Virus record (IMG/VR): IMGVR_UViG_2609459800_000001
Reading direction: 5' to 3' (one strand)
Origin: a virus
Lineage: Duplodnaviria; Heunggongvirae; Uroviricota; Caudoviricetes
Length of the DNA stretch: 64,000 nucleotides
Under the pieces are notes generated by a model. The model was given only the letters and a program-made list of their open reading frames with translations, made no database searches and was not told the origin of the DNA. Of this stretch, positions 31,801-44,991 are shown piece after piece (positions within the stretch are counted from its first letter, which is position 1; each line of letters starts with the position of its first letter). The position numbers were made by a program, and so were the translations under genes.

Positions 31801-31997
31801 TGAGCCGTGGCGTTAGTCAACTACGAAGACGTGGCCATTACCTACTTAACCAGTTCCGCCAGGGCAGCAGAGTAGGTTTCATCTCGGATGTACCATGCCT
31901 GCATGTTTTCCAGAGAAGCCCGCGAGGTTCCCGGACAGGACTCTGCCATTGCGATAGATTAAATGCAATAACCTAAAAGCGATAACGTGGTGGAAAA

Positions 31998-32635
31998 ATG
32001 TTCATCAGAGCTTATTTAAGGGCATCAACGGAAGATCAGTTTGCCGATCGGGCAAAAGAGATGCTGGGGCAGTTTGTTCAGGAGCGGGGACATAAAATAG
32101 CCAGTTACTACCGGGAGAACATAAGCGGTACAAAACTCGACCGCCCGGAACTGGGACGCTTACTGATGGACAGCCACCGCAATGATATTTTACTGGTCGA
32201 GCAAATTGACCGCCTGACCCGTCTGAGTAACAGTGACTGGATTACGCTGAAAAAGCAGATAGAACAACACGAACTGCGGATTGTCGCCTGGATGTATCCA
32301 CCTCATGGCAGGCGCTGTCAGATAAAGACCCTTCGCAGGCTGACCCAATCACCCGCGCCGTGATAACCGCCATCAATAACATGCTTATCGACCTGATGGC
32401 CGCGATGTCGCATAAGGACTGGCTGAGCCGTCGCCAACGGCAACAACAGGGAATTGAACGGGCTCATACGCTGGGTAAATACCGGGGATAACAGGCCGAT
32501 CAGGAACGGCATCAGAAAGTCCTGTACTACCGGCAGGTCAAGAAACTAAGTATCCATGAAACGGTAGATGCGACAGGGTACAGTCCTTCACAGATATGCC
32601 GCATTCAAGAGAGCCTGAATCGGAATAAAAAGTAG
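31998..32635 (+). pseudogene. serine recombinase (resolvase/invertase family) pseudogene with two frameshifts
   Basis: Catalytic N-terminus, middle and HTH C-terminus lie in three different frames. Confidence 0.7.
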
Positions 32636-32734
32636 CCCTGGCGTTAATGGATTACCTTTCCAGGCTAAGCTCATTGCTCCTGTCAGATACGCAGCCCTGC
32701 CTGTAATAATACAGACTGGGCAATGTGTTGCCAC

Positions 32735-33136
32735 TCAGGCTGACAACTGTCGGAGGATATCCGCTGTATTATAATGAGCCCGTTTTTCTATATATTTCCC
32801 GTCCTTCAGAGTGATCATAAATATCAGAGAAAAGCGCACTTTCCTGCCGCTGGCAGGATGCCCAAGGAATTCACGGGTCTGCACGCCTTCAAAGATAAGA
32901 TAGCAGGCGACTTTATCGTCTCTGGCAAAGATTTCGTGGATACGCATTGTAAATCCCGGAAAAGCATCCATATGGCCTTTTTCCTGTACGATAAACTGCT
33001 CACTGTTCAGCGGTGTATCCACCTGAGAATAGAATTTAAAATCCGGATGGCAGAGGTTTTTCACCTCATCATATTTATTTTCTTCAATCAGACGATAAAA
33101 CTTTTTAACCGTTTTGATATTTTCTTCAACAGACAT
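32735..33136 (-). CDS. NTF2-like / SnoaL-type ester-cyclase-like protein
   Basis: 133-aa ORF; pattern resembles SnoaL-like polyketide cyclase family. Confidence 0.55.
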   Translation of the reverse strand: MSVEENIKTVKKFYRLIEENKYDEVKNLCHPDFKFYSQVDTPLNSEQFIVQEKGHMDAFPGFTMRIHEIFARDDKVACYLIFEGVQTREFLGHPASGRKVRFSLIFMITLKDGKYIEKRAHYNTADILRQLSA

Positions 33137-33144
33137 ATTGCACC

Positions 33145-34134
33145 TCATTTTTCAGTTTCTTTACCTGCCGGAATATTGCCTGCCGGCGTTCCGTTAAATG
33201 TTTTTCGCCATTCACTGGGACTGACTCCCATCCGCTGCCGGAATATCTGCCGGAAAGTAATGGTGGACTGAAAGCCTGCCAGTTCGGCAACCCGCTCCAC
33301 TGCAATATCTGTACTTTCCAGCAGTTCCTGACTCCGCCGGAGACGCTCTGTGGTGATCCACTCCCAGACCGTCATTCCTGTGGCCGAATGAAAATGGCGT
33401 GTAAGCGTTCTTCGGCTCATGGAGGCTAAATGGGCCAGAGTGTCAATATCATGTGGTAATCCCAGATTTGCGGACAGGTATTCCAGCAGCTGGTTTATGC
33501 GGTTATCGGACGTACTTTTGGGAATAAGCAGTTGCCGGTACTGTGCCTGTCCGCCTTCCCGGTAAGGAGGAGCAACCATCCGGCGGGCTATTTGATTAGC
33601 CGTATATCTGCCCAGGCGTTGCCGGATCACATGGAGACAACAGTCCAGTGCTGCGGCTGTACCGGCTGAGGTGATAATCCGCTCGTCCTCAACATAAAGC
33701 ACGTTCACGTCCAGATGAACCGCCGGGAAAAGCATCTGGAAATCCCGTTCAGCCTCCCAGTGCGTGGCCGCCCGTTTACCATCCAGCAGACCGGTGTAAG
33801 CCAGAACAAAACTCCCCAGGCACAGGCCCACCACCTGAGCTCCATTTTTCCAGGCTGCAACCAGGGCACTGAGCAGAGTTTCAGAAGGCCTTTCATGGAT
33901 GTGTTTCCAGAAAGGAATAATAACGATATCGGCCTCTGCCAGTGCATCAAGCCCGTATTCTGCCCTCATCGCCGTACCTTCAGCAGACCAGATAAGCCCG
34001 GGCTCTTCCGCACATACCCGGCGGCTGAAGAGAGCCTTCCCTTCCAGTATCTCCCCGAACAGGATTAGTGGAACGGAGACATGAAATGTACTGAACCCTT
34101 CGGTGATCACTATAGCGACAGTGATGGTGGACAT
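33145..34134 (-). CDS. GlxA-family transcriptional regulator (DJ-1/PfpI domain + AraC-type HTH)
   Basis: N-terminal DJ-1-like domain with Cys nucleophile motif (VVGLCLGSF); C-terminal AraC HTH. Confidence 0.8.
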   Translation of the reverse strand: MSTITVAIVITEGFSTFHVSVPLILFGEILEGKALFSRRVCAEEPGLIWSAEGTAMRAEYGLDALAEADIVIIPFWKHIHERPSETLLSALVAAWKNGAQVVGLCLGSFVLAYTGLLDGKRAATHWEAERDFQMLFPAVHLDVNVLYVEDERIITSAGTAAALDCCLHVIRQRLGRYTANQIARRMVAPPYREGGQAQYRQLLIPKSTSDNRINQLLEYLSANLGLPHDIDTLAHLASMSRRTLTRHFHSATGMTVWEWITTERLRRSQELLESTDIAVERVAELAGFQSTITFRQIFRQRMGVSPSEWRKTFNGTPAGNIPAGKETEK

Positions 34135-34149
34135 GCCATGGCCTCCGGG

Positions 34150-34926
34150 TTAAATCGTAACTGATTCACCATCAGCAGGAACGGCAACTGACGCCTGGAT
34201 CTGGTTATCGCGGGCATATTCCAGCAGTTCCTGACGGGTCAGCAGACAGTGGTTTACGGCCTCCATGTGCGTTGCCACAATCAGTGCCTCTGGTACGATA
34301 CGATGGGCTTTCAGGACATCTTCCCTGCCGAAAATAATGGGGCCGAATCCGAGAACATGCGCCCAGCCCGTATTCATAATAACGACGCCAGGATTGAACC
34401 GACGTAAATTATCCTCTACAGCCTTGATCCAGATGGTATCCCCGACCAGATAGAGCGTTTTTTCGGACGGATGCTGGAAGACCACCCCACAGGCATCCCC
34501 AAGGATTGCTGCGAGTTGCGGGTTAGCATAGGCTTCGTCCGAACCATGCTGACAAACGGTTTTAATAAGTGAAATTTCGCCAAATGTGCTTTTGTCAGAC
34601 AGAATAACAAGGTTGCTGAAGCCCTGGGAACGCAGGATCTTTTCATCATGTTCATTCTGAACATAAATCAGTTTATCTTTCGGGATGTGCGCAACAGCCG
34701 CTTCATCCCAGTGGTCAGGGTGTGTGTGGGTGACAATAATGGCATCCACATCCAGCAGTACATCAAGGTCAAAAGGCAGCTCAGTCATCGGGATGCGGAT
34801 ATCTGACCGGGCCGTTCCTTCGAATCCCGGATAGGCTTCTTTTTTCGCAAGCATCGGATCGACAAGAAATTTTTTACCAGCGTAAGAAATGAGTTGTGTG
34901 GCGTTACGTACCTGGATGATCTTCAT
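34150..34926 (-). CDS. MBL-fold metallo-hydrolase
   Basis: THTHPDHW metal-binding motif (HxHxDH). Confidence 0.8.
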   Translation of the reverse strand: MKIIQVRNATQLISYAGKKFLVDPMLAKKEAYPGFEGTARSDIRIPMTELPFDLDVLLDVDAIIVTHTHPDHWDEAAVAHIPKDKLIYVQNEHDEKILRSQGFSNLVILSDKSTFGEISLIKTVCQHGSDEAYANPQLAAILGDACGVVFQHPSEKTLYLVGDTIWIKAVEDNLRRFNPGVVIMNTGWAHVLGFGPIIFGREDVLKAHRIVPEALIVATHMEAVNHCLLTRQELLEYARDNQIQASVAVPADGESVTI

Positions 34927-35144
34927 TTTAGCAAGTCCTGTATTGGTTAATAACCATCAGAGCCATATCATGATGGCCTAATGTGATAATTATGATTAAA
35001 TCAGGCCTGCCTGCCACTGAAATAATGCCATATTTGGATGATATCAGGCCATTCTTCTGGCTCTCAGGTTTCAGGAATATGTCTGCTGAAAGCGGGTACA
35101 GATCTGACGCATTGAAGGGAAGTATCGTCCTTTAAGGCTTATTG

Positions 35145-35531
35145 ATGTCAGCCAGTACAAAAAATCATCTTAACGTACAATATCTTCCGTTTCCCAAACG
35201 GAGCCCACCAACGACGGAGGAACGGCGCGTCGCCAATGCTCTTGGCGCTCTCCCCTGCATTGCCTGCTATATGCATGGAGTAATATCTAATGAGGTGTCT
35301 CTGCACCATATCGCCGGTCGTACCGCGCCGGGTTGTCATAAAAAGCAATTGCCACTTTGTAGATGGCACCACCAGCATGCAGCTCCGGCGGAAGTAAGAG
35401 AAAAATACCCATGGCTGGTCCCTGTTCATGCCGATGGTGTGGTTGGAGGCAAGAAAGAATTCACCTTGCTGAACAAGTCAGAGATGGAGTTACTGGCTGA
35501 CGCCTATGAGATGGCAAATATCATGCACTAA
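35145..35531 (+). CDS. HNH endonuclease-like protein at the P1 ref position
   Basis: CIAC...HHI...CRWHHQ HNH/Zn motif; 128 aa from first ATG. Confidence 0.6.
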   Translation: MSASTKNHLNVQYLPFPKRSPPTTEERRVANALGALPCIACYMHGVISNEVSLHHIAGRTAPGCHKKQLPLCRWHHQHAAPAEVREKYPWLVPVHADGVVGGKKEFTLLNKSEMELLADAYEMANIMH

Positions 35532-35719
35532 TAAATATATTATTTTTAATGATAAATGATTGACAACTGACAAGTGACTTCAGTCAGAATCATCACACGC
35601 CCGGTACGGATGGATCCCTTTTCAAATATTCCATGGACGGCACAGTCTGAGTACCGGGCGCTACCTTCAGTTGTATTGCTAAGCCGCCGCTGGTGGCTTT
35701 TCTTTTTTGTAGGGGCGCT

Positions 35720-36361
35720 ATGGATAAGAAAATATGCGTTGTTTCAATGAGCGTCGGCAAACCGGCGTCAATGACTGCTGCATGGATCAACAATGAGCTG
35801 ATAATGGCTGAGCGGACCAGCTACCCTGAACGCCGCCGCGATATGGAACTCCAGCTGCTGCGCGAATTGCGAGAAAAAGAGGAAAAGGGTTTTATCGTGC
35901 TGGTGGAAGAGGAAAACAGCTTTATTACCGGTCAAGTTGGCCAGCGTGTAAGGTTGCGTGATCCCTTCATGAACGGCAGACCGGTACTGATTGAAGCAAT
36001 GCAGATTTACAAGGAATTGGAACGCCAGAAAGCGATCAAGTTACCGCGCAAGGAATCCGGCAAATACATCCTTCACCAAAGCATCTTCGATTCCGAACAC
36101 GATAAAAAAGGCGATGAATTTTTCAACATCAACTGGAGCGAAATAACGACAGAGCATGTTCTGACGTTACTATGTTGCTTTGCGACGGAATACAACAACG
36201 TTGCCAGCGCCGACTACATCAGGGCAATGGCTGGAGAAGTTGAAGCCCGCCAGGAACCATCGTTACTAAGTCCACTTATTAACATAATTCTGGGTACCCA
36301 GACACTGGAACAAAAAAAAGTGCCGAAAGGGGTATTAACAGGCAAGCATAATTATTTCTAA
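35720..36361 (+). CDS. hypothetical protein at the P1 mat position
   Basis: 213-aa ORF downstream of ref-like gene. Confidence 0.4.
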   Translation: MDKKICVVSMSVGKPASMTAAWINNELIMAERTSYPERRRDMELQLLRELREKEEKGFIVLVEEENSFITGQVGQRVRLRDPFMNGRPVLIEAMQIYKELERQKAIKLPRKESGKYILHQSIFDSEHDKKGDEFFNINWSEITTEHVLTLLCCFATEYNNVASADYIRAMAGEVEARQEPSLLSPLINIILGTQTLEQKKVPKGVLTGKHNYF

Positions 36362-36559
36362 TAATTTATAGTGGGGACTTTTGATGGTGTAAAACCCCAT
36401 GAATTATTATTTTTTAGTTTTTTGATTCTATTTTTTTTGCATTACCCGTCATAAAAATGAGCTTGCTTACATAATAGAAAATTATTTTATCAACACTATT
36501 ACAACAAACGATTATCACTGATAACATGAGTCCTTTGAAAACAAAGGACTCACCATACT

Positions 36560-37168
36560 ATGTCTAATACCTCGGCAAATGAAATTGTACCGCACTTACC
36601 GCTAATTTTCGAAAATGAAGCTAATGGGATTCTTCAGGATCTGGCCTATACTCCATCGCTTATGGGGTTGATGATGTTCCCGACAGAAGAGGAGCTGAAA
36701 GCAGCGAGAAGCTACATAATTAACGTTTTTGAAGAGTGTTACCGAGCCGGTCATTTGCGCATTATGGGCTTTACTAATGAAGAAAACTTGTTCGGATACG
36801 CCTTAATCTTCGGACATCCATCGGGAAATTTTCCGTTGTACTGTCATAAAATATATGTATATGAGCAATATCGTGGTAATGGACTTGGAAGTAATATACT
36901 GGCAGAAATACTTGCATTTCCAAATGAGGTCGCTTTGATTTGCCAGTCTGATTTGGTTCCTTTTTATGAATCAGCCGGAATGCACTTTAAAGGAAATTAC
37001 ACCACTCCATCAGTCGCCAATTTCAAAAAAACTCGCGGCATGTATGAGGGGCTTTGTTTGATGAGCACTGAAAAAAATGCAAACTCTAATGGTGTACCTA
37101 TATTCATGCTGAACGATAACGATATTGATAACATCATACAGGCTATCGCATCATCGGCACCACGATAA
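36560..37168 (+). CDS. GNAT-family N-acetyltransferase
   Basis: Acetyl-CoA motif QYRGNGLGS; AT-rich gene with AT-rich leader. Confidence 0.75.
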   Translation: MSNTSANEIVPHLPLIFENEANGILQDLAYTPSLMGLMMFPTEEELKAARSYIINVFEECYRAGHLRIMGFTNEENLFGYALIFGHPSGNFPLYCHKIYVYEQYRGNGLGSNILAEILAFPNEVALICQSDLVPFYESAGMHFKGNYTTPSVANFKKTRGMYEGLCLMSTEKNANSNGVPIFMLNDNDIDNIIQAIASSAPR

Positions 37169-37250
37169 TATTAATAATTCATCTCGCCGCAGGAACTACA
37201 AACCAGTTGATTGTTTGTGAAACGCCCGGTGCAAACCGGGCCAACAAAAC

Positions 37251-37499
37251 TCAATCAGCATTTAGTAGCAGAGCATTATCTATGATGATCTGCTCCCATT
37301 CTTCGAATGCCCGGTCGCGGACGCCCTGGGGAACGCTGTTTGTTTTGAAATCGACGACCGTCCGCCATTTTCCGTCAGGACGGTACATGCGCAGAGCTTT
37401 ACTTCCCCCTTCCCTGCGCACCTCAACGTTATGCTTGTCAGCAAACTCTTGTAATGCTCGTAGCGTCCCATGCTTTACTGTGTAGTATCGCTTTTTCAA
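37251..37499 (-). CDS. small protein at the P1 lxc (bof) position
   Basis: 82-aa ORF, size and position as recalled for Lxc/Bof. Confidence 0.5.
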   Translation of the reverse strand: MKKRYYTVKHGTLRALQEFADKHNVEVRREGGSKALRMYRPDGKWRTVVDFKTNSVPQGVRDRAFEEWEQIIIDNALLLNAD

Positions 37500-37936
37500 G
37501 TTTTATCTCCAGCCTGTGCTAAGGCTTCAACTTCCAAATCGTAAGACTCAAACTCATAGTCCTGGTCGTCAACTTCTTCAGGCACTGGCAGTAAATGCCA
37601 GGCTGAGTATATCTGACCATTATCAAAACGCTCCTGGCTGTAGAGCGTCGCGGCTATGAGTGTTAGCGCCGGGCGGTCATAACGGTAAATTTTGCGAACG
37701 TCACGGTCAACGAGACGACCGAAATTACCATAACCGCGCTCCAGTAATAATTTTTTAATTTCCGGCCAGTATGGACCATAGCTGCGGTACAGGCGGGGAT
37801 TTTTCAGTAATCGCCCGCGTAGCCCTGACAGGAAGAAATCAACGTATTCGTCTTCTGTTTTTCCTAACAACGCTGTACGGAGTACCGCCTCAAGATATGT
37901 TTTATTCGGTTTTATTGTATCAGATAGTGTGACCAT
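37496..37936 (-). CDS. hypothetical protein at the P1 ulx position
   Basis: 146-aa ORF overlapping downstream start. Confidence 0.5.
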   Translation of the reverse strand: MVTLSDTIKPNKTYLEAVLRTALLGKTEDEYVDFFLSGLRGRLLKNPRLYRSYGPYWPEIKKLLLERGYGNFGRLVDRDVRKIYRYDRPALTLIAATLYSQERFDNGQIYSAWHLLPVPEEVDDQDYEFESYDLEVEALAQAGDKT

Positions 37937-37969: not shown

Positions 37970-39337
37970 TTATGCGTATTGTTGGATGACGGCCAGAACG
38001 TCCGACACGTTGTGTTTTGTCTCGATAATCCACCAGTTGCCCGGGAAATCGCTGTTCTTCGCCTTCGCTGGCACCCAGCGAGCGCCGAATTTTTCCTTGA
38101 TTGCGTCTTTAGCACGGAAAAGAACGCCTTTCATGCCGGACGCCTCCTGAAGCCCAAATACCTCGCCAGCGGCGAATTTTGGTGCGTACATCATCTTCAG
38201 GTCGGCGGTGGATACGCGATAATTCAGACCAAGAGACTGAGCTATGCTGGTGGCATCACCCTGTATTGATGATAACTCTTCTTGTTTCTCGTTTCTGGCG
38301 GCAATTTCTTCCTCCGTGATGTTGCCAAGGGCCAGGTTTATCCGATCAGCGTCGGCCTGTTTCTCTTCATCGGTGCGCCCGGCAAGAACCGTGTTAATTC
38401 TCTGCAATATCTCCACATGATTCTTGCGCATGCTGAGCAATTCCGGCGTAACATCGTTAAGATCCACCAGCCCAAGGATGGCAAGGTCGGAAAACATTGA
38501 TACCAGGTTGTAGGTCATGCGATAGCTGAGTTGGCTATAGGCTGATGGCAACTGCACCGCATCCATTTGATAGGCATCCATAAATTTAGAGCCGTCGTTT
38601 ACGACATCCGCAATTGCCGGTGTGATTTTCCCTGTGGTGGCGGCCTCCCTGATTGCTGTTACCCACGATTGAGTCAGCGCGGCGACTGCATGATTCAGAT
38701 TGGCTTTCCGTTCTGCTGCAATGCGCGCGCTTGCTGCGTCCATTGCCTGCTTGATCTCGTCTTTATTGCTGTAAATGCCAATGGGACCAAACTGTGTTGT
38801 GGTGATCTCATAATCTGACGCCCGGAACTCATTGGTACCGAAAATGGCATTGGTGACCTCAAGTTCAGAATCCCCGTTACGAGTAGCCCCCTGACTTGTT
38901 TTCTCCGGCATTTTTGCGATCGCATCCGCTATTTTCTCCTGAATTGCTTCAGGGGATAGCGTATCTCCGTATGACGCGATTACATCGCTATAATTGGATC
39001 CAAACAGTTCAGTCAGGAATACTTCTGCCAAACGGACCTGGCGGTTATTCCCTTCCGACATCATACCAAGCACCCATTTAGCAATTGACGACTTCAGCGC
39101 GCCGTCACGGCGATCCGGGTAAACCGCATGCTTCAGTGGGTCCGTATAGGTACCAACAAAATCAATGCTATAGCCTGACTCTGTAGTCTGAACGCCGTAT
39201 GAGTCAGTGATTTTGATCATGCCGCGCTGCTGGAAACGGTAGAAATCGTCACAGGAAATGATGTCGTTAATCCCGGCGATGGAGACGCCACCACTGATTT
39301 TCTGCATAACAGCATCTTCATCGGGAGTTACATCCAC
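37970..39337 (-). CDS. hypothetical protein (455 aa); possible C-terminal remnant of a darB-like gene
   Basis: GTG start; lies where P1 darB 3-prime end is expected. Confidence 0.4.
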   Translation of the reverse strand: MDVTPDEDAVMQKISGGVSIAGINDIISCDDFYRFQQRGMIKITDSYGVQTTESGYSIDFVGTYTDPLKHAVYPDRRDGALKSSIAKWVLGMMSEGNNRQVRLAEVFLTELFGSNYSDVIASYGDTLSPEAIQEKIADAIAKMPEKTSQGATRNGDSELEVTNAIFGTNEFRASDYEITTTQFGPIGIYSNKDEIKQAMDAASARIAAERKANLNHAVAALTQSWVTAIREAATTGKITPAIADVVNDGSKFMDAYQMDAVQLPSAYSQLSYRMTYNLVSMFSDLAILGLVDLNDVTPELLSMRKNHVEILQRINTVLAGRTDEEKQADADRINLALGNITEEEIAARNEKQEELSSIQGDATSIAQSLGLNYRVSTADLKMMYAPKFAAGEVFGLQEASGMKGVLFRAKDAIKEKFGARWVPAKAKNSDFPGNWWIIETKHNVSDVLAVIQQYA

Positions 39338-40119
39338 CTGTTATCCAGCGTCTTCACATCCCAGTTACCCGATTTGGTGCCTTTGAAGGTAAAGATGATC
39401 TCCACGTCTGCGCGCTGGCTGTCGAAGTCCAGCGACTTAATGCGAACGATATCACCGGCACAATCGTAGTATTGGCCTACACGCCATGAGCGATCGCCGA
39501 TAACAAGGAACTCACTCGCATGGTTAACCAGGTCAGGATCAACATCCAGAATGCCTTTATTTATTGCATCCTCCACCAGTGGGCGCAGGCGTTTGATATC
39601 CGTCGCGGCCTTCTGAGTACGGTTCAATAATTTCTCATAGCGGGAGATGGCTTGAGAGATATTAGCCTTGCGCTGAATGGCGCTTTTCAACGACGCGCGA
39701 TACTGTGCTAACAACATACGGTCTGTGTGATGGACACTCCCCCAGCGGGCCTTCCAGTCTGCGTTATCAGCTGCTTTGGCCATTACCGCCTGTTTGAATT
39801 TAGCTACCTCGGCGGTGGTCTTTTCAAATTCCGCTTTGCTTCGCTCTAATTCAGCGGTAAGTACCTCCACATCCTCACCAGCTGCGTGCTGCGCCTTGAT
39901 GTAGTTCTGAAGGTCGATAGTAGCCTGTTCTTTCTGGCGAGCGCGTTGCGCGGCTTTCGCCTTATCCATTTGAACCTGCATCATTGCCAGACGTTCACCG
40001 TCATCCTTCGCGGTATACATCTGCATTTCGATCATATCATTGGCGTCGGCGTTCTCCATTTCTGACTTATCTGAACGGAGGATATCGGAGATCCTGGGCT
40101 TCGTTTGGGAAACGTACAA
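39328..40119 (-). CDS. coiled-coil protein (263 aa) whose 5-prime end abuts inverted repeat L
   Basis: TTG start inside the repeat; first ATG gives ~243 aa. Confidence 0.4.
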   Translation of the reverse strand: MYVSQTKPRISDILRSDKSEMENADANDMIEMQMYTAKDDGERLAMMQVQMDKAKAAQRARQKEQATIDLQNYIKAQHAAGEDVEVLTAELERSKAEFEKTTAEVAKFKQAVMAKAADNADWKARWGSVHHTDRMLLAQYRASLKSAIQRKANISQAISRYEKLLNRTQKAATDIKRLRPLVEDAINKGILDVDPDLVNHASEFLVIGDRSWRVGQYYDCAGDIVRIKSLDFDSQRADVEIIFTFKGTKSGNWDVKTLDNRWM

Positions 40120-40331
40120 TATTGTACGGTTGCGCTATTGCGGTAGGGTGTACTCCAACGCTATACGGTCTTTGGCAGACCTTTAGGGAAATGAGATAAG
40201 CTAAATGCGATAAGAGAAAAGCAATAACTTAAAGGCAATAGCTGATTACGATAAATCAATCAGTTACTTATCAGTATCGATTAAAAAATGCTCCTAACGT
40301 ACAATAATTTCCGTTTCCCAAACCGACCCCT
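40093..40331. repeat. 239-bp inverted repeat, left copy (MITE-like)
   Basis: Near-identical inverted copy at 43748-43986; contains palindrome CGTACAATATTGTACG (40113-40128); own ends form ~26-bp imperfect TIR. Confidence 0.85.
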
Positions 40332-40341
40332 AATAGCCGGA

Positions 40342-40539
40342 CTACGGACGCGCAATAATTCGCCCCTGACTTTCCAGCAGTTGGTAAGCATGTCCGACGG
40401 TCATGAAGCTCATGCCGCTGCTGGCGACCTGTTCGCGCAGTGACGGCAGACGATCGCCGGGTCGCCAGACGCCAGAGGCGATCTGTTCGCAAAGTTGTTC
40501 AGCCAGACGCTGGTATTTTTTATTCTGGTTTCTCGTCGG
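40342..40539 (-). pseudogene. GntR-family regulator fragment (HTH domain only)
   Basis: KKYQRLAEQL...GDRLPSLREQ...MTVGHAYQLL HTH; no start codon; ends 11 bp from repeat. Confidence 0.55.
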
Positions 40540-40691
40540 TCAATGCAGGTGAGCCTCGCAGTGTATAACAGTGAATAAAATTCACAACGATTTGCAAACT
40601 GTTATGGTTAAATATGTCTGTTCTGTTTCTGCCCCTCATTGCCTCACACGCTTAGAATTGCGCTGAATCAATTTTTAATGCGGAGTCAGGC

Positions 40692-42092
40692 ATGTTTGGT
40701 CTTGATGCGTATCACCTGGCAAGGATCCAGTTCGCCTTTACAGTTTCATTTCACATTATCTTTCCGGCGATCACCATTGGGCTTGCCAGTTATCTGGCGG
40801 TGCTGGAAGGCCTTTGGCTAAAAAGCAAAAATCCGGTCTGGCGCTCGTTGTACCACTTCTGGTCAAAAATATTCGCCGTAAATTTCGGCATGGGCGTGGT
40901 TTCCGGTCTGGTGATGGCCTATCAGTTCGGCACCAACTGGAGCGGTTTTTCGGAATTCGCAGGCAGTATTACCGGGCCGTTGCTTACCTATGAGGTGCTG
41001 ACCGCTTTCTTCCTTGAAGCCGGATTCCTCGGGGTGATGCTGTTTGGCTGGAATAAAGTCGGTCCGGGTTTGCATTTCTTCTCAACCTGCATGGTGGCGC
41101 TTGGCACCCTCATTTCCACCTTCTGGATCCTGGCGTCTAACAGTTGGATGCAAACGCCGCAGGGGTTTGAGATCGTCAACGGCCAGGTTGTGCCCGTGGA
41201 CTGGTTCGCCGTTATCTTCAATCCTTCGTTCCCTTATCGGCTGCTGCATATGTCCGTCGCCGCATTTCTCAGTAGCGCGCTGTTTGTCGGCGCTTCGGCA
41301 GCCTGGCATCTGCTGCGCGGCAACGCAACGCCAGCCATTCGCACGATGTTTTCCATGGCGTTGTGGATGACGCTTATTGTCGCGCCGGTGCAGGCGTTAA
41401 TCGGCGATATGCATGGGCTGAACACCCTGAAACATCAGCCAGCCAAAATCGCCGCGATTGAAGGTCACTGGGAAAACCCGCCGGGTGAGCCCACGCCGCT
41501 GCTGCTGTTTGGCTGGCCGGATATGGAACAGGAACGCACCCGCTATGGACTGGCGATCCCGGCGCTGGGAAGCCTGATCCTGACGCACAGTCTGGATAAA
41601 CAGGTTCCGGCGCTAAAAGAATTCGCCAAAGAGGATCGCCCTCACTCGACGATCGTGTTCTGGTCGTTTCGCATCATGGCCGGCCTGGGCATGTTAATGA
41701 TCCTGCTAGGGCTCTGTGCGCTCTGGCTGCGCTACAGGCAGCGCCTCTACACCTCGCGCCCGTTCCTGCGCTTTGCGCTATGGATGGGACCCTCGGGGCT
41801 CATCGCCATTCTCGCGGGCTGGGTGACCACTGAGGTCGGACGCCAGCCGTGGGTGGTGTACGGTTTACAGCGTACTGCCGACGCGGTGTCGGCCCACGGC
41901 GATTTACATATGAGCATTTCGTTGCTCGCTTTCTTTGTTGTCTACAGCTCAGTCTTTGGCGTCGGCTACAGCTATATGATTCGCCTGATCCGCAAAGGCC
42001 CGCTGGAAGATGATTCCGCGCCGCCGCCGGGCACACCCGCCAGGCCGCTTTCCGCCGCCGTCCTCGATTCTCAACATAAGGCACATCGCTAA
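40692..42092 (+). CDS. cytochrome bd-type quinol oxidase subunit I (CydA/AppC/CioA family, short Q-loop)
   Basis: 466 aa; alignable with E. coli CydA N-terminal region and GRQPW motif. Confidence 0.9.
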   Translation: MFGLDAYHLARIQFAFTVSFHIIFPAITIGLASYLAVLEGLWLKSKNPVWRSLYHFWSKIFAVNFGMGVVSGLVMAYQFGTNWSGFSEFAGSITGPLLTYEVLTAFFLEAGFLGVMLFGWNKVGPGLHFFSTCMVALGTLISTFWILASNSWMQTPQGFEIVNGQVVPVDWFAVIFNPSFPYRLLHMSVAAFLSSALFVGASAAWHLLRGNATPAIRTMFSMALWMTLIVAPVQALIGDMHGLNTLKHQPAKIAAIEGHWENPPGEPTPLLLFGWPDMEQERTRYGLAIPALGSLILTHSLDKQVPALKEFAKEDRPHSTIVFWSFRIMAGLGMLMILLGLCALWLRYRQRLYTSRPFLRFALWMGPSGLIAILAGWVTTEVGRQPWVVYGLQRTADAVSAHGDLHMSISLLAFFVVYSSVFGVGYSYMIRLIRKGPLEDDSAPPPGTPARPLSAAVLDSQHKAHR

Positions 42093-43102
42093 TGGGTATT
42101 GATTTATCGGTTATCTGGTTTGTGATCATCGTTTTCGCCACGCTAATGTATATCGTGATGGATGGATTCGATTTGGGTATTGGCATTCTGTTTCCTGTCA
42201 CACGAAACGCAGAGGATCGTGATGTGATGGTCAATAGCGTCGCGCCGGTGTGGGACGGTAATGAAACCTGGCTGGTGCTGGGCGGCGCGGGGCTGTTTGG
42301 GGCTTTCCCGATGGCCTATGCGGTTATTATCGATGCGCTGACCATTCCGTTGACGCTGATGCTGATCGGACTGATTTTTCGCGGCGTGGCCTTCGAGTTT
42401 CGCTTCAAGGCCACGCCAGCCCACCGCCCATTTTGGGACCATGCTTTTCTCGGCGGGTCGATTCTGGCTACCTTCGCCCAAGGGATCGTGGTTGGCGCAG
42501 TGATCAACGGTTTCCCGGTGACCGGTCGCAGCTACAGCGGCGGGCCGTTCGACTGGTTAACCCCCTTCACTCTGTTCTGTGGCGTCGGACTGGTCGTTGC
42601 CTATGCGCTCTTAGGCGCAACCTGGCTGGTGATGAAAAGCGAAAATCCGCTTCAGGATAAAATGCGCAGCGTCGCGAAAAAACTGCTGCTGGCCCTGCTG
42701 TTGTCAATTGCGATAATCAGCCTCTGGACACCGTTAGCGCATCCGGCGATCGCCGACCGTTGGTTTACGCTTCCCAACCTGGGCTATCTGCTGCCGGTTC
42801 CGGTGCTGGTGATCGCGTTCAGCGTCTGGTTATGGCGCACACTGGGTCGTCCGGAAAACCACACGTTTCCGTTTGTGCTGACGCTCGGGCTAATCTTCCT
42901 TGGTTTCAGCGGCCTGGGCATCAGTATCTGGCCGCACATTATTCCGCCTTCGGTTACCCTCTGGCAGGCAGCCGCCCCCGCCCAGAGTCAGGGGTTTATG
43001 CTGGTCGGTGCGCTGCTCATCATTCCGGTGATTTTGGTGTACACCTTCTGGAGTTACTATGTGTTTCGCGGCAAAGTGCAACATGGCGAGGGGTATCACT
43101 GA
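42092..43102 (+). CDS. cytochrome bd-type quinol oxidase subunit II
   Basis: 336-aa polytopic protein, start overlaps subunit I stop. Confidence 0.9.
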   Translation: MGIDLSVIWFVIIVFATLMYIVMDGFDLGIGILFPVTRNAEDRDVMVNSVAPVWDGNETWLVLGGAGLFGAFPMAYAVIIDALTIPLTLMLIGLIFRGVAFEFRFKATPAHRPFWDHAFLGGSILATFAQGIVVGAVINGFPVTGRSYSGGPFDWLTPFTLFCGVGLVVAYALLGATWLVMKSENPLQDKMRSVAKKLLLALLLSIAIISLWTPLAHPAIADRWFTLPNLGYLLPVPVLVIAFSVWLWRTLGRPENHTFPFVLTLGLIFLGFSGLGISIWPHIIPPSVTLWQAAAPAQSQGFMLVGALLIIPVILVYTFWSYYVFRGKVQHGEGYH

Positions 43103-43230
43103 TGCAACATTCTCTCTGGAAACGCCTGATGTGGCTGGTCATCCTTTGGGGCGGCAGCGTGTTGGCGCTGGCGGCGGTGGGCATGTTTTTTCGCCTGCTC
43201 ATGACTGCGGCGGGGTTTAAAGCGCATTAA
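43102..43230 (+). CDS. small membrane protein (42 aa), CydX-like position
   Basis: ATGA overlap with subunit II stop; single TM helix. Confidence 0.45.
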   Translation: MQHSLWKRLMWLVILWGGSVLALAAVGMFFRLLMTAAGFKAH

Positions 43231-43334
43231 GCGGACACCTCGCCGGATGTCGGCTTTGGGCCAGGCGTTAACCGGCGGAAATAAATACCAACACAAAGGC
43301 CCGGTAAACGCCACCGGGCTGATGTCGCAAAGGA

Positions 43335-43745
43335 TTAAGGTTTACGCTTCGGCAGCGTTTTCATCAGATCTTCCGGACTGACGGAACCCACCACGCTGCC
43401 CGGCAGCGGCATTTTAAGAATGTGATCTTCAATCTTGCCGATAACGTGCATTTCACACGGGCGACAGCCAAATTTCAGCGTCAGCACCTCATCACCGTTG
43501 ACCAGTTGCATTGGCGTCGCTTTCCAGCTTTTGATGTTACCTTTCGCCTGTTTCGGGCAAAGATTAAAGGCAAAACGCAGGCAATGCTTGGTGATCATCA
43601 CAGGCACATCGCCCTTTTCTTGATGCGCTTCATACGCCGCGTCGATCAACTGTACGCCATAACAATGGTAGAACTCACGCGCCTTCTGGTTATAGACGTT
43701 TGCCAGAAAACTCAGATGCGTCTGCGGGTAGACCGGCGCGGGATC
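43335..43745 (-). pseudogene. C-terminal fragment of an unidentified host-type gene (5-prime end replaced by repeat)
   Basis: Frame stays open upstream into inverted repeat R with no start codon. Confidence 0.4.
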
Positions 43746-43747
43746 GG

Positions 43748-43986
43748 AGGGGTCGGTTTGGGAAACGGAAATTATTGTACGTTAGGAGCATTTTTTAATC
43801 GATACTGATAAGTAACTGATTGATTTATCGTAATCAGCTATTGCCTTTAAGTTATTGCTTTTCTCTTATCGCATTTAGCTTATCTCATTTCCCTAAAGGT
43901 CTGCCAAAGACCGTATAGCGTTGGAGTACACCCTACCGCAATAGCGCAACCGTACAATATTGTACGTTTCCCAAACGCAGCCCAGG
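43748..43986. repeat. 239-bp inverted repeat, right copy
   Basis: Reverse complement of 40093-40331 with one visible mismatch. Confidence 0.85.
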
Positions 43987-44615
43987 TACGCGTTTTTAAT
44001 TGCCATATCCCGCGCCGATTGCGCCACCGCGCTGGTGGGCAGATAGGCCAGTTGTGACGCTTCGCGACCATTTTTATAGCTATTGCGGTAGTTGTGACCT
44101 TCGTCGGCGATCACACTATCGAAGCCCATATCCTCAAAGTACGGATACTTCTCTGCTTTTTCGGTGCCGGTATCTGAATACTCCGACAATACCCGGCGAC
44201 GCGCGGCCTCTTTGCGGTGGGAGTCGGAGTCCATTGCGCTGGCTACGCGCCCGGCAGCAACGAAGTCATAAAGCATATCCTGTGCATGCTCATCTACGGT
44301 GTCATCACGTAGCGGAATGCGGGCGTATTGTTCTTTGGTAAACACGACTGCACGGTAATTTGAGTGCGGGATTGCATTCATACGTGCCGTGATAGTGGCT
44401 TCATCTGCCAGTTTAAGGGCATCGCGCATAACTGGAGTGCCATCAGTACCAAGAACAGGTTTACCGTTCTCATCGAGCACCGGCACCTGGCGAATCTGAT
44501 CGCCATCCATCAGCACATCAAGACCGACAAACAGGTAGTTACTGAATGCCTCTTCACTCAGGAACTCTTTTGCTTCGTAATACCAGTTTTCCAGCACTGA
44601 TTTATATTGTCTCAT
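43893..44615 (-). pseudogene. darB-like N-terminal fragment 2; last ~30 codons read into inverted repeat R
   Basis: ORF diverges into repeat at 43986; contains DEGH motif. Confidence 0.35.
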
Positions 44616-44991
44616 TAAAAACGCCGGTGCCCGCCGATGGTTCCAGAGTGTTACCTACGTCCGCGCCATAGAGGTTCATGATCTCCCAGACGCCTTCAGC
44701 GATAGGCTTTGGTGTGTAATATTCGGAGACGGACCCGCCAATGCCGCCTTCGCCGGTGTACCCAGCCAGGATCTGGCGCTGTTCATCTGTCAGTGTCGCG
44801 CCATCCACCAGCGAATTAAGCAAATCTATCGCCTTCTGATTCGCCTCCCGGCGCAGCCGGTCATAGCTTTTGCCTTCCACCTTTTCCACGCCGTATCTAA
44901 TCGGCGCTCGATGAGATGTTATTGCCCTAATGTATTTCAATATTTCGCTGACACTTGAACAGCGAAACACCCCCATAGATAGCTTGTTCAT
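44602..44991 (-). CDS. darB-like N-terminal fragment 1 (methyltransferase motif I-like)
   Basis: LEPSAGTGVF resembles SAM-binding motif I; overlaps next ORF by 14 nt in another frame. Confidence 0.35.
   Translation of the reverse strand: MNKLSMGVFRCSSVSEILKYIRAITSHRAPIRYGVEKVEGKSYDRLRREANQKAIDLLNSLVDGATLTDEQRQILAGYTGEGGIGGSVSEYYTPKPIAEGVWEIMNLYGADVGNTLEPSAGTGVFNETI

Follow-up and report, generated by a model that had tools for sequence, protein, structure and literature searches.

What does a solitary acetyltransferase gene do in the place where bacteriophage P1 carries its type III restriction-modification (R-M) genes? The question is raised by a stretch of viral DNA of 64,000 nucleotides (IMG/VR record IMGVR_UViG_2609459800_000001, hereafter the window), which, judging from nucleotide identity, is a P1-like plasmid-prophage: its cre-c8, ref-mat, lxc-ulx-darB and prt parts are 95-98% identical to P1 in blastn alignments. 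Between mat and lxc the window has an open reading frame (ORF) for a GNAT N-acetyltransferase (36560-37168, + strand), which starts with ATG, contains YEQYRGNGLGSNIL and encodes a protein of 202 amino acids (aa) with the segment YEQYRGNGLGS. A first-pass annotation of the sequence had noticed a lone GNAT gene at the res/mod position, and the ORF, its neighbors and the res-mod annotation of P1 and P7 all agree with that description. The gene is exchangeable cargo of the mat|lxc interval in P1-like plasmid-prophages. We tentatively propose that it is expressed in the lysogen and that it encodes a single-gene immune or exclusion enzyme, which would place an acetyl group on a primary amine, either of a cationic metabolite or of a basic phage protein.

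The junctions of the exchanged segment were located by blastn against P1 and by comparison with the corresponding junctions of RCS47, SJ46, P7 and MH422554. Homology to P1 ends at 36361|36362, directly past the mat stop codon, and returns at 37252|37253, directly past the lxc stop codon. The resulting cassette (36362-37252, + strand) is 891 bp long and takes the place of a 6,283-bp res/mod segment of P1; the interval of 36362-37250 given for it earlier is essentially exact. The gene is absent from this position in canonical P1. The two parts of the cassette differ in composition, with a G+C content of 28.5-29% in the leader and 37-43% in the GNAT gene, against 43-52% in the flanks. The earlier description of both as AT-rich is thus accurate for the leader, which is markedly so, and too strong for the gene, which is only moderately so. 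Among 5,426 complete Escherichia coli genomes the cassette DNA occurs in 19, and there in plasmids only.

The mat|lxc interval is a genuine exchange hotspot for defense genes, as had been supposed. In P1 and P7 it holds the type III R-M genes res and mod, a pair that has been named 'variable region 1' of P1-like elements (PMC9603915). SJ46 has a RelA/SpoT gene there, oriented like the GNAT gene, and CapRelSJ46 from phage SJ46 is an experimentally validated fused toxin-antitoxin defense (PMC9712102). In RCS47 the interval is empty, with 39 bp that include a hairpin. The GNAT gene is carried by 21 (3%) of the 707 PLSDB plasmids that match the slot flanks. When 60 evenly spaced records among these 707 P1-like plasmids were sampled, the slot contained a SIR2 gene in nine, a DUF2971 gene in seven, a RelA/SpoT gene in five, the GNAT gene in two, a PIN gene in one or two and other small genes in two; it was empty in four, and in 27 the flanks were too distant to be joined, a pattern that is given by P1 itself and is read as a larger insert. 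Four other single-gene occupants have matches in PADLOC (RelA/SpoT, PDC-S33; SIR2, PDC-S25/ThsA; PIN, PDC-S34; DUF2971, PDC-S31). The GNAT gene is therefore inserted between conserved mat and lxc genes at a site where the alternative occupants are known or candidate defense genes. A second allele lineage, with 84-85% protein identity to the first, occupies the same slot in plasmids of E. coli and E. albertii, so that two GNAT alleles differing by 15% in protein sequence share one site between flanks that are about 97% identical.

Representative occupants of the P1 slot are a SIR2 protein of 435 aa (L038, 1119-2426), a PIN protein of 316 aa (L039, 1105-2055) and a DUF2971 protein of 346 aa (L005, 2138-3178). 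A 132-aa occupant from E. albertii (L040, 1198-1596) has no match whatsoever and is a second 'dark' occupant of the slot.

The GNAT gene is a genuine gene rather than a chance ORF, because it evolves under purifying selection, with a ratio of nonsynonymous to synonymous substitution rates (dN/dS) of 0.10-0.15 in comparisons with four alleles whose proteins are 71-84% identical to it, and because an identical protein has been expressed and crystallized. Chain A of PDB entry 9s30, which is titled just 'GNAT family N-acetyltransferase', is 100% identical to the predicted protein over all 202 residues, preceded by a 30-residue N-terminal extension (tag). The entry is missing from a copy of the PDB ending 2026-04-08, which indicates that the structure is recent and that someone is working on the protein. 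Literature searches found no paper on the GNAT protein or on entry 9s30. Because the structure of this exact protein has been solved, an account of its function may be imminent or may already exist outside the literature searched. At present the gene is annotated everywhere merely as 'GNAT family N-acetyltransferase', and PHROG 10454, which it matches over its full length (residues 1-202 of 202, E 6.1e-145), bears the annotation 'unknown function'.

The family to which the protein belongs is small. It comprises 23 clusters among 5.8 billion proteins and 61 representatives among 1.84 billion; a scan with a 23-sequence alignment located nine loci in 185,579 species genomes, and 68 plasmids carry members. 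All members are about 190-210 aa long and are co-linear over residues 12-196, and a profile search detected no domain fusions. As the gene also has no conserved neighbor, the unit is a single gene. The product is best explained as an N-acetyltransferase that is catalytically competent and self-contained and that belongs to a rare orphan family.

The assignment to the GNAT fold is supported by several lines of evidence. The protein passes the curated Pfam cut-offs of Acetyltransf_10 (27.3 versus 23.6 bits) and Acetyltransf_1 (25.6 versus 20.7 bits) and falls just under that of Acetyltransf_7 (25.3 versus 27 bits). AlphaFold gave a mean predicted local distance difference test score (pLDDT) of 36 from the single sequence and, with an alignment of 54 family sequences, a confident single-domain GNAT α/β fold with a pLDDT of 92.8. 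The acetyl-CoA binding motif A, (Q/R)-x-x-G-x-(G/A) after strand β4, is present as R105-G-N-G108-L-G110, and R105, G108 and G110 are kept in at least 90% of the 54 family members. Other conserved positions are Y94-x-H96-K97 on strand β4 and F135-Y136. The candidate catalytic residues H96 and Y136 are invariant among the closer family members and align with His122 and Tyr168 of AANAT, which are catalytic residues of that enzyme. This correspondence is taken as evidence that the protein would carry out ordinary amine N-acetylation chemistry.

About 60 residues beyond the GNAT core are specific to the family and strongly conserved. They include an N-terminal helix (residues 6-28) with the pattern LPxIFExEAxGILxDL, in which E20, A21 and D27 stand out, and a C-terminal PIFxLNDxD segment (180-188) followed by a helix; in the model the long N-terminal helix and the C-terminal helix both fall outside the canonical core. 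The protein is acidic, with an isoelectric point (pI) of 4.95 and a net charge of -9, and so is most of the family (42 of 54 members have a pI below 6, and the median is 5.15). The conserved family-specific residues are themselves largely acidic (E20, D186 and D188). These features point to a cationic acceptor rather than to tRNA or DNA.

The best relatives of known function, in sequence and in fold, are AANAT, SSAT, SpeG and PaiA. Apart from 9s30, the closest PDB sequences are serotonin and polyamine acetyltransferases (E about 3e-3 when the single sequence is searched, 3e-8 with the profile), in alignments confined to the core, and Foldseek gave template modeling (TM) scores of 0.4-0.5 to PaiA, AANAT, ElaA and SpeG. 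The resemblance stops at the core, however: only 75-145 residues or so can be aligned, at 13-20% identity, and AANAT and the polyamine acetyltransferases have neither the helix at the N terminus nor the PIFxLNDxD helix at the C terminus, both of which are unique to the present family. Fold searches against viral proteins returned generic GNATs only. In terms of sequence and predicted structure, the family is distinct from every known GNAT with which it was compared.

Outside the P1 slot, the relatives of the gene form a solitary, mobile family that is associated with defense islands, on chromosomes or on plasmids. The gene stands alone in every context, and its neighbors are never conserved. 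Immediately downstream of one homolog lies Dsr1 (L019); Gabija is 3.2 kb away from another (L020); a C5 methylase, probably of an R-M system, adjoins a third (L018). Elsewhere the homologs are found near PDC-S49 (L025), an operon of E1/ThiF, DUF6527 and multiubiquitin genes (L021), NACHT proteins (L013), a cluster of GIY-YIG, helicase and methyltransferase genes (L027) and an AbiEii toxin (L026). Only a few percent of random genes, on a rough estimate, lie within 6 kb of a recognized defense system. A defense system is present at such a distance in about half of the independent non-P1 contexts, which suggests a strong association, the comparison being with our own estimate and not with a formal control.

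Other homologs reside in mobile elements of various kinds. A Raoultella lambdoid prophage has one between its replication and nin regions and a siphovirus-like contig has one between its lysis and tail genes, in both cases on the opposite strand; in the prophage, phage-plasmid and siphovirus-like contigs (L011, L030, L035 and L036) the gene often opposes the phage genes. In plasmids of Klebsiella and Citrobacter the homolog is found at sites flanked by insertion sequences (IS110/IS5/IS4321). In elements of Pseudomonas aeruginosa it belongs to a co-oriented array of small genes beside a DUF4942 / S-adenosylmethionine-dependent methyltransferase gene and a NUDIX gene. In a Serratia phage-plasmid family it adjoins lpa, ParM and the C1 repressor gene.

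Two of these settings deserve a separate description. The Serratia and related contigs (L030-L032 and L035) represent a distinct phage-plasmid lineage with a P7-type C1 repressor, Lpa and ParM/StbA, which is found in 180 blocks of the assembly collection; there the homolog occupies a different place from that in P1-like elements, near the immunity and partition genes. In the Pseudomonas syringae group (L021, 7888-9596, and L022) the two genes just ahead of the homolog are a DUF6791-ThiF (E1-like) gene and a DUF6527 gene, and 40 nt past the homolog begins a gene for a conserved 270-aa protein without a family match, which is also present in L024. This protein may be a lineage-specific operon partner of the homolog in that group.

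By combining the slot, the family and the chemistry, it is possible to describe how the gene might work. The GNAT gene would be transcribed from a promoter of its own in the lysogen. With acetyl-CoA as donor, the enzyme would then acetylate a primary amine of some target that carries positive charge and is no nucleic acid, for example a metabolite resembling a polyamine or a basic protein of a phage. The acetylation would protect the element and its host from other phages, through immunity or superinfection exclusion. A more specific form of this proposal, which we regard as doubtful, is that the protein represents a new effector chemistry: a single-protein immune enzyme, made by the prophage without partner or antitoxin, that would stop superinfecting phages by N-acetylating something they need, either a small cationic molecule or one of their basic proteins. 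Polyamines used for DNA condensation and an internal or DNA-binding phage protein are examples of such targets.

The signals around the gene are consistent with independent expression. The region upstream of mat retains a P1-type C1 operator, Omat (35522), and a late-promoter -22 box (35572); neither a C1 operator nor a -22 box was found in the leader of the GNAT gene (36362-36559, + strand, 198 bp), which is AT-rich and has no conserved ORF. The leader cannot be aligned with the leaders of the homologs except around a single common element, TG-n-TAAYAT, located about 33-40 nt upstream of the start codon. In the window this element is TGATAACAT (36519-36527, + strand) and in homologs it is TGCTAATAT or TGCTAACAT. 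It is not listed by a consensus promoter scan, and it is read here, from the alignment of homologs, as a putative extended -10 promoter element.

The Shine-Dalgarno sequence AAGGA (36544-36548) is buried in an 11-bp hairpin, TGAGTCCTTTG-AAAA-CAAAGGACTCA (36527-36552, + strand), with a folding energy of -16.1 kcal/mol (z = -5.56; none of 200 shuffled sequences was as stable). The hairpin is confined to this allele and is not kept in the homologs. A transcript starting just past the proposed -10 element would miss the 5' arm, so that the hairpin might silence only those transcripts that read through from mat. The hairpin may thus tell transcripts of the gene's own promoter from mat read-through transcripts. 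Downstream of the gene, a G+C-rich hairpin, GCCCGG-TGCAAA-CCGGGC (37224-37241), separates the GNAT gene from lxc, toward which it is transcribed; the hairpin folds with -16.6 and -16.2 kcal/mol on the two strands (z -2.4 and -2.8), resembles the hairpin in the empty slot of RCS47 (GCCCGGCGACAGACCGGGC) and probably serves as a terminator. Another hairpin, after mat (36374-36399), was considered as a terminator and rejected, as it is no better than shuffled sequences (z -0.77).

Several points weigh against an immune role of the GNAT enzyme. The evidence drawn from neighbors and from the slot is indirect and amounts to guilt by association. The proposed class of substrate has only the charge of the protein and a weak similarity to other enzymes behind it (E about 1e-3 to 1e-8, TM 0.4-0.5). 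PADLOC 2.0 has no model for the protein, which matched none of the families of PADLOC-DB 2.0 at E values up to 1, and its accession is absent from those portions of the DefensePredictor study supplements that were covered. A 2025 survey of the defenses of P1-like elements names R-M III, dGTPase, PrrC and CapRel, and a GNAT is not among them (bioRxiv 10.1101/2025.09.12.675607); text searches of candidate papers likewise gave no mention of a lone GNAT. The slot adjoins the anti-restriction genes ulx and darB. Some contexts of the family are merely plasmid sites flanked by insertion sequences (L007, L008 and L026) or a chromosomal islet (L033), and two (L015 and L028) are arrays of small genes beside an orphan methyltransferase; such contexts fit counter-defense or plain cargo equally well. 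Finally, the hairpin masks the ribosome-binding site, and expression of this allele may therefore be low or conditional.

Of the competing explanations, a rather unlikely one is that the gene is a moron unrelated to phages, which would inactivate an antibiotic, a microcin or a toxic amine, or adjust polyamine pools, for the benefit of the host. The nearest relatives of the protein are indeed acetyltransferases of small-molecule amines (AANAT, SSAT/SpeG/PaiA, ElaA, and the tabtoxin, streptothricin and aminoglycoside enzymes), an acidic protein would suit cationic drugs, and the copies between IS110/IS5/IS4321 are on Klebsiella and Citrobacter plasmids of the multi-resistance type. The NCBIfam models for resistance and housekeeping enzymes, however, are far from matching: the best are PRK10314 with 13.4 bits (cut-off 171) and ArsN1a with 12.4 bits (cut-off 170), and the RimI equivalog TIGR01575 reaches 12.5 bits against a cut-off of 86.4. 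With other PDB relatives no better than E of about 1e-3, the protein is not a characterized aminoglycoside or housekeeping acetyltransferase, an identity that the first-pass annotation had named as fatal to its reading. The resistance predictors of PLSDB did not flag the gene in the records viewed. Its rarity among species genomes, combined with its defense-island and prophage contexts, would also be unusual for a resistance gene selected by drugs.

Alternatively, the enzyme might act in counter-defense, acetylating and disabling an immune protein or signal of the host and so helping P1-like and other mobile elements to become established. There is a precedent in AcrVA5, a GNAT anti-CRISPR protein that acetylates and disables Cas12a. 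The proximity of the slot to ulx and darB fits this possibility, as does the array of small genes in P. aeruginosa, which looks like the entry region of a plasmid or of an integrative and conjugative element. One homolog lies between lysis and tail genes, and the GNAT gene is co-oriented with mat, so that late read-through would be possible. Yet no homolog was found in 50,697 sequenced phage genomes, several copies are chromosomal and lie within islands of defense genes, and the prophage copies are usually on the strand opposing the lytic genes. The other occupants of the slot are defense and not anti-defense genes, and the GNAT gene itself lacks both a C1 operator and a late-promoter box. On balance counter-defense appears unlikely.

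It had also been suggested that the gene might encode a toxin of the AtaT/TacT type or an enzyme that acetylates tRNA or nucleic acid. In a form of the toxin idea developed here, the protein would be an abortive-infection effector that acetylates aminoacyl-tRNA once a phage cue has freed a brake within the molecule; the extra elements that the family has at both termini would correspond to the fused antitoxin-like domain of CapRel. This form draws on the presence of CapRelSJ46, a fused single-protein toxin-antitoxin, in the same slot, on the 60 or so conserved residues beyond the core, on the occurrence of GNAT toxins among the fold matches, and on the hairpin over the ribosome-binding site, which would suit a dangerous protein. 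CapRelSJ46 resembles the GNAT gene in being a single self-contained gene in the same slot and on the same strand of a P1-like element, and differs from it in fold and chemistry, which are unrelated: CapRel has a RelA/SpoT domain and a PADLOC match (PDC-S33), whereas the GNAT protein has neither a recognizable separate sensor or antitoxin domain nor a match in PADLOC.

The GNAT toxins of type II toxin-antitoxin systems (AtaT, TacT, ItaT and KacT) share with the protein the GNAT fold, dependence on acetyl-CoA, small size and location on mobile elements. The substrate of these toxins is aminoacyl-tRNA, and the gene of a DUF1778/RHH antitoxin lies upstream of each. The present gene, in contrast, has no partner, the family is acidic, and its structure is no closer to these toxins than to any other GNAT: toxins do occur in the Foldseek list (6ajm, AtaT, and 7byy), at ranks 44 and 48 and with TM scores of 0.36-0.37. 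No antitoxin gene is present in about 18 contexts of the family. The earlier statement that an antitoxin-like partner is missing is borne out in the window as well, where the + strand of the leader has no ORF of at least 30 aa and the leader no Rfam match, and where comparison of eight alleles revealed no conserved small ORF, the small antisense ORFs being lost in diverged alleles. A 50-aa antisense ORF (36602-36754) recurs in four alleles and is truncated or lost in more distant ones; it was rejected as a gene, since its codons are in perfect register with those of the sense frame and just three sense codons could therefore close it. The acidic pI also speaks against tRNA binding, although only indirectly. 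The suggestion of a toxin or of a tRNA- or nucleic-acid-acetylating enzyme is thus not supported, and a toxin is distinctly unlikely.

It is very improbable that the gene is mere cargo, passive or in decay, that does nothing for this element at present: the element is degraded elsewhere, with darB broken and ref truncated, and the GNAT Shine-Dalgarno sequence is buried, but the ORF is intact with 99.5-100% protein identity in 14 of the plasmids listed, selection between alleles is strongly purifying and all catalytic motifs are intact.

Two further systems with a GNAT or acyltransferase component were compared with the gene. DS-33 is described, in the supplement of the DefensePredictor study (PMC13092281), as a validated E. 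coli anti-phage system that requires a GNAT-type domain and consists of two genes, one of which encodes a HEPN-like protein (320 aa) and the other a GNAT-bearing protein (333 aa); the gene of the window has no such partner. A match to this 'GNAT' system was rejected, with a BLASTP E value of 0.53, an hhalign probability of 5% and nothing in common beyond the cofactor loop. Mom of phage Mu is an enzyme of acyltransferase fold that serves a temperate phage in the restriction arms race. Genes of the Mom type are present in some P1-like elements (bioRxiv 10.1101/2025.09.12.675607). DNA modification of this kind was rejected for the GNAT protein, the hhalign probability against Mu Mom being 0.15%.

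The conserved flanks of the cassette are readily identified. On the left, mat (maturation control; 35693-36361, + strand) is 95% identical to P1 up to its stop codon and matches PHROG 1837 (E 2.7e-112); in RefSeq relatives its start corresponds to window position 35720. On the right, lxc (37251-37499, - strand), annotated in P1 as a modulator of the C1 repressor, is 97.7% identical to P1 from 37253 and matches PHROG 2160 (E 7.8e-57). It is followed by ulx, a Ulx-like anti-restriction gene by P1 annotation (37496-37936, - strand; PHROG 1629, E 4.5e-66).

Farther from the slot, the window carries additional cargo and damage. The darB gene (37970-44991) is destroyed: its 3' part extends to 40094, a foreign insert of 3.9 kb follows (40095-43982), and then only two darB fragments remain, two internal darB stretches of P1 being missing from the window. 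The insert encodes subunits I and II of a cytochrome bd oxidase (40692-42092 and 42092-43102), a respiratory oxidase that is unusual as cargo of a phage-plasmid. A second insert, of 3.36 kb, lies between c8 and ref (31842-35199) and contains a resolvase fragment, an ester-cyclase-like ORF, a DJ-1/PfpI-AraC regulator and an MBL-fold hydrolase; ref is truncated at its 5' end to 129 aa. The whole arrangement recurs in plasmid pB27_2 (NZ_AP027426).

Acetyltransferases as such are already known from toxin-antitoxin and defense systems; what appears to be new here is an orphan, partner-less, acidic GNAT family in a defense socket. The mat|lxc interval acts as a one-gene socket, all common occupants of which, apart from the GNAT gene, are already known or candidate immune genes, and one of them, CapRel, has become a model for the sensing of phages by bacteria. 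The position of a gene in such a hotspot can thus flag defense candidates that are missed by profile-based tools, here PADLOC. The gene is a compact lead: from a fragment of 0.9 kb one could learn of a new chemistry of immunity or counter-immunity. If the proposed immune function is true, acetylation of a non-nucleic-acid target would join nucleotide depletion, NAD depletion and attack on tRNA among the strategies of immunity.

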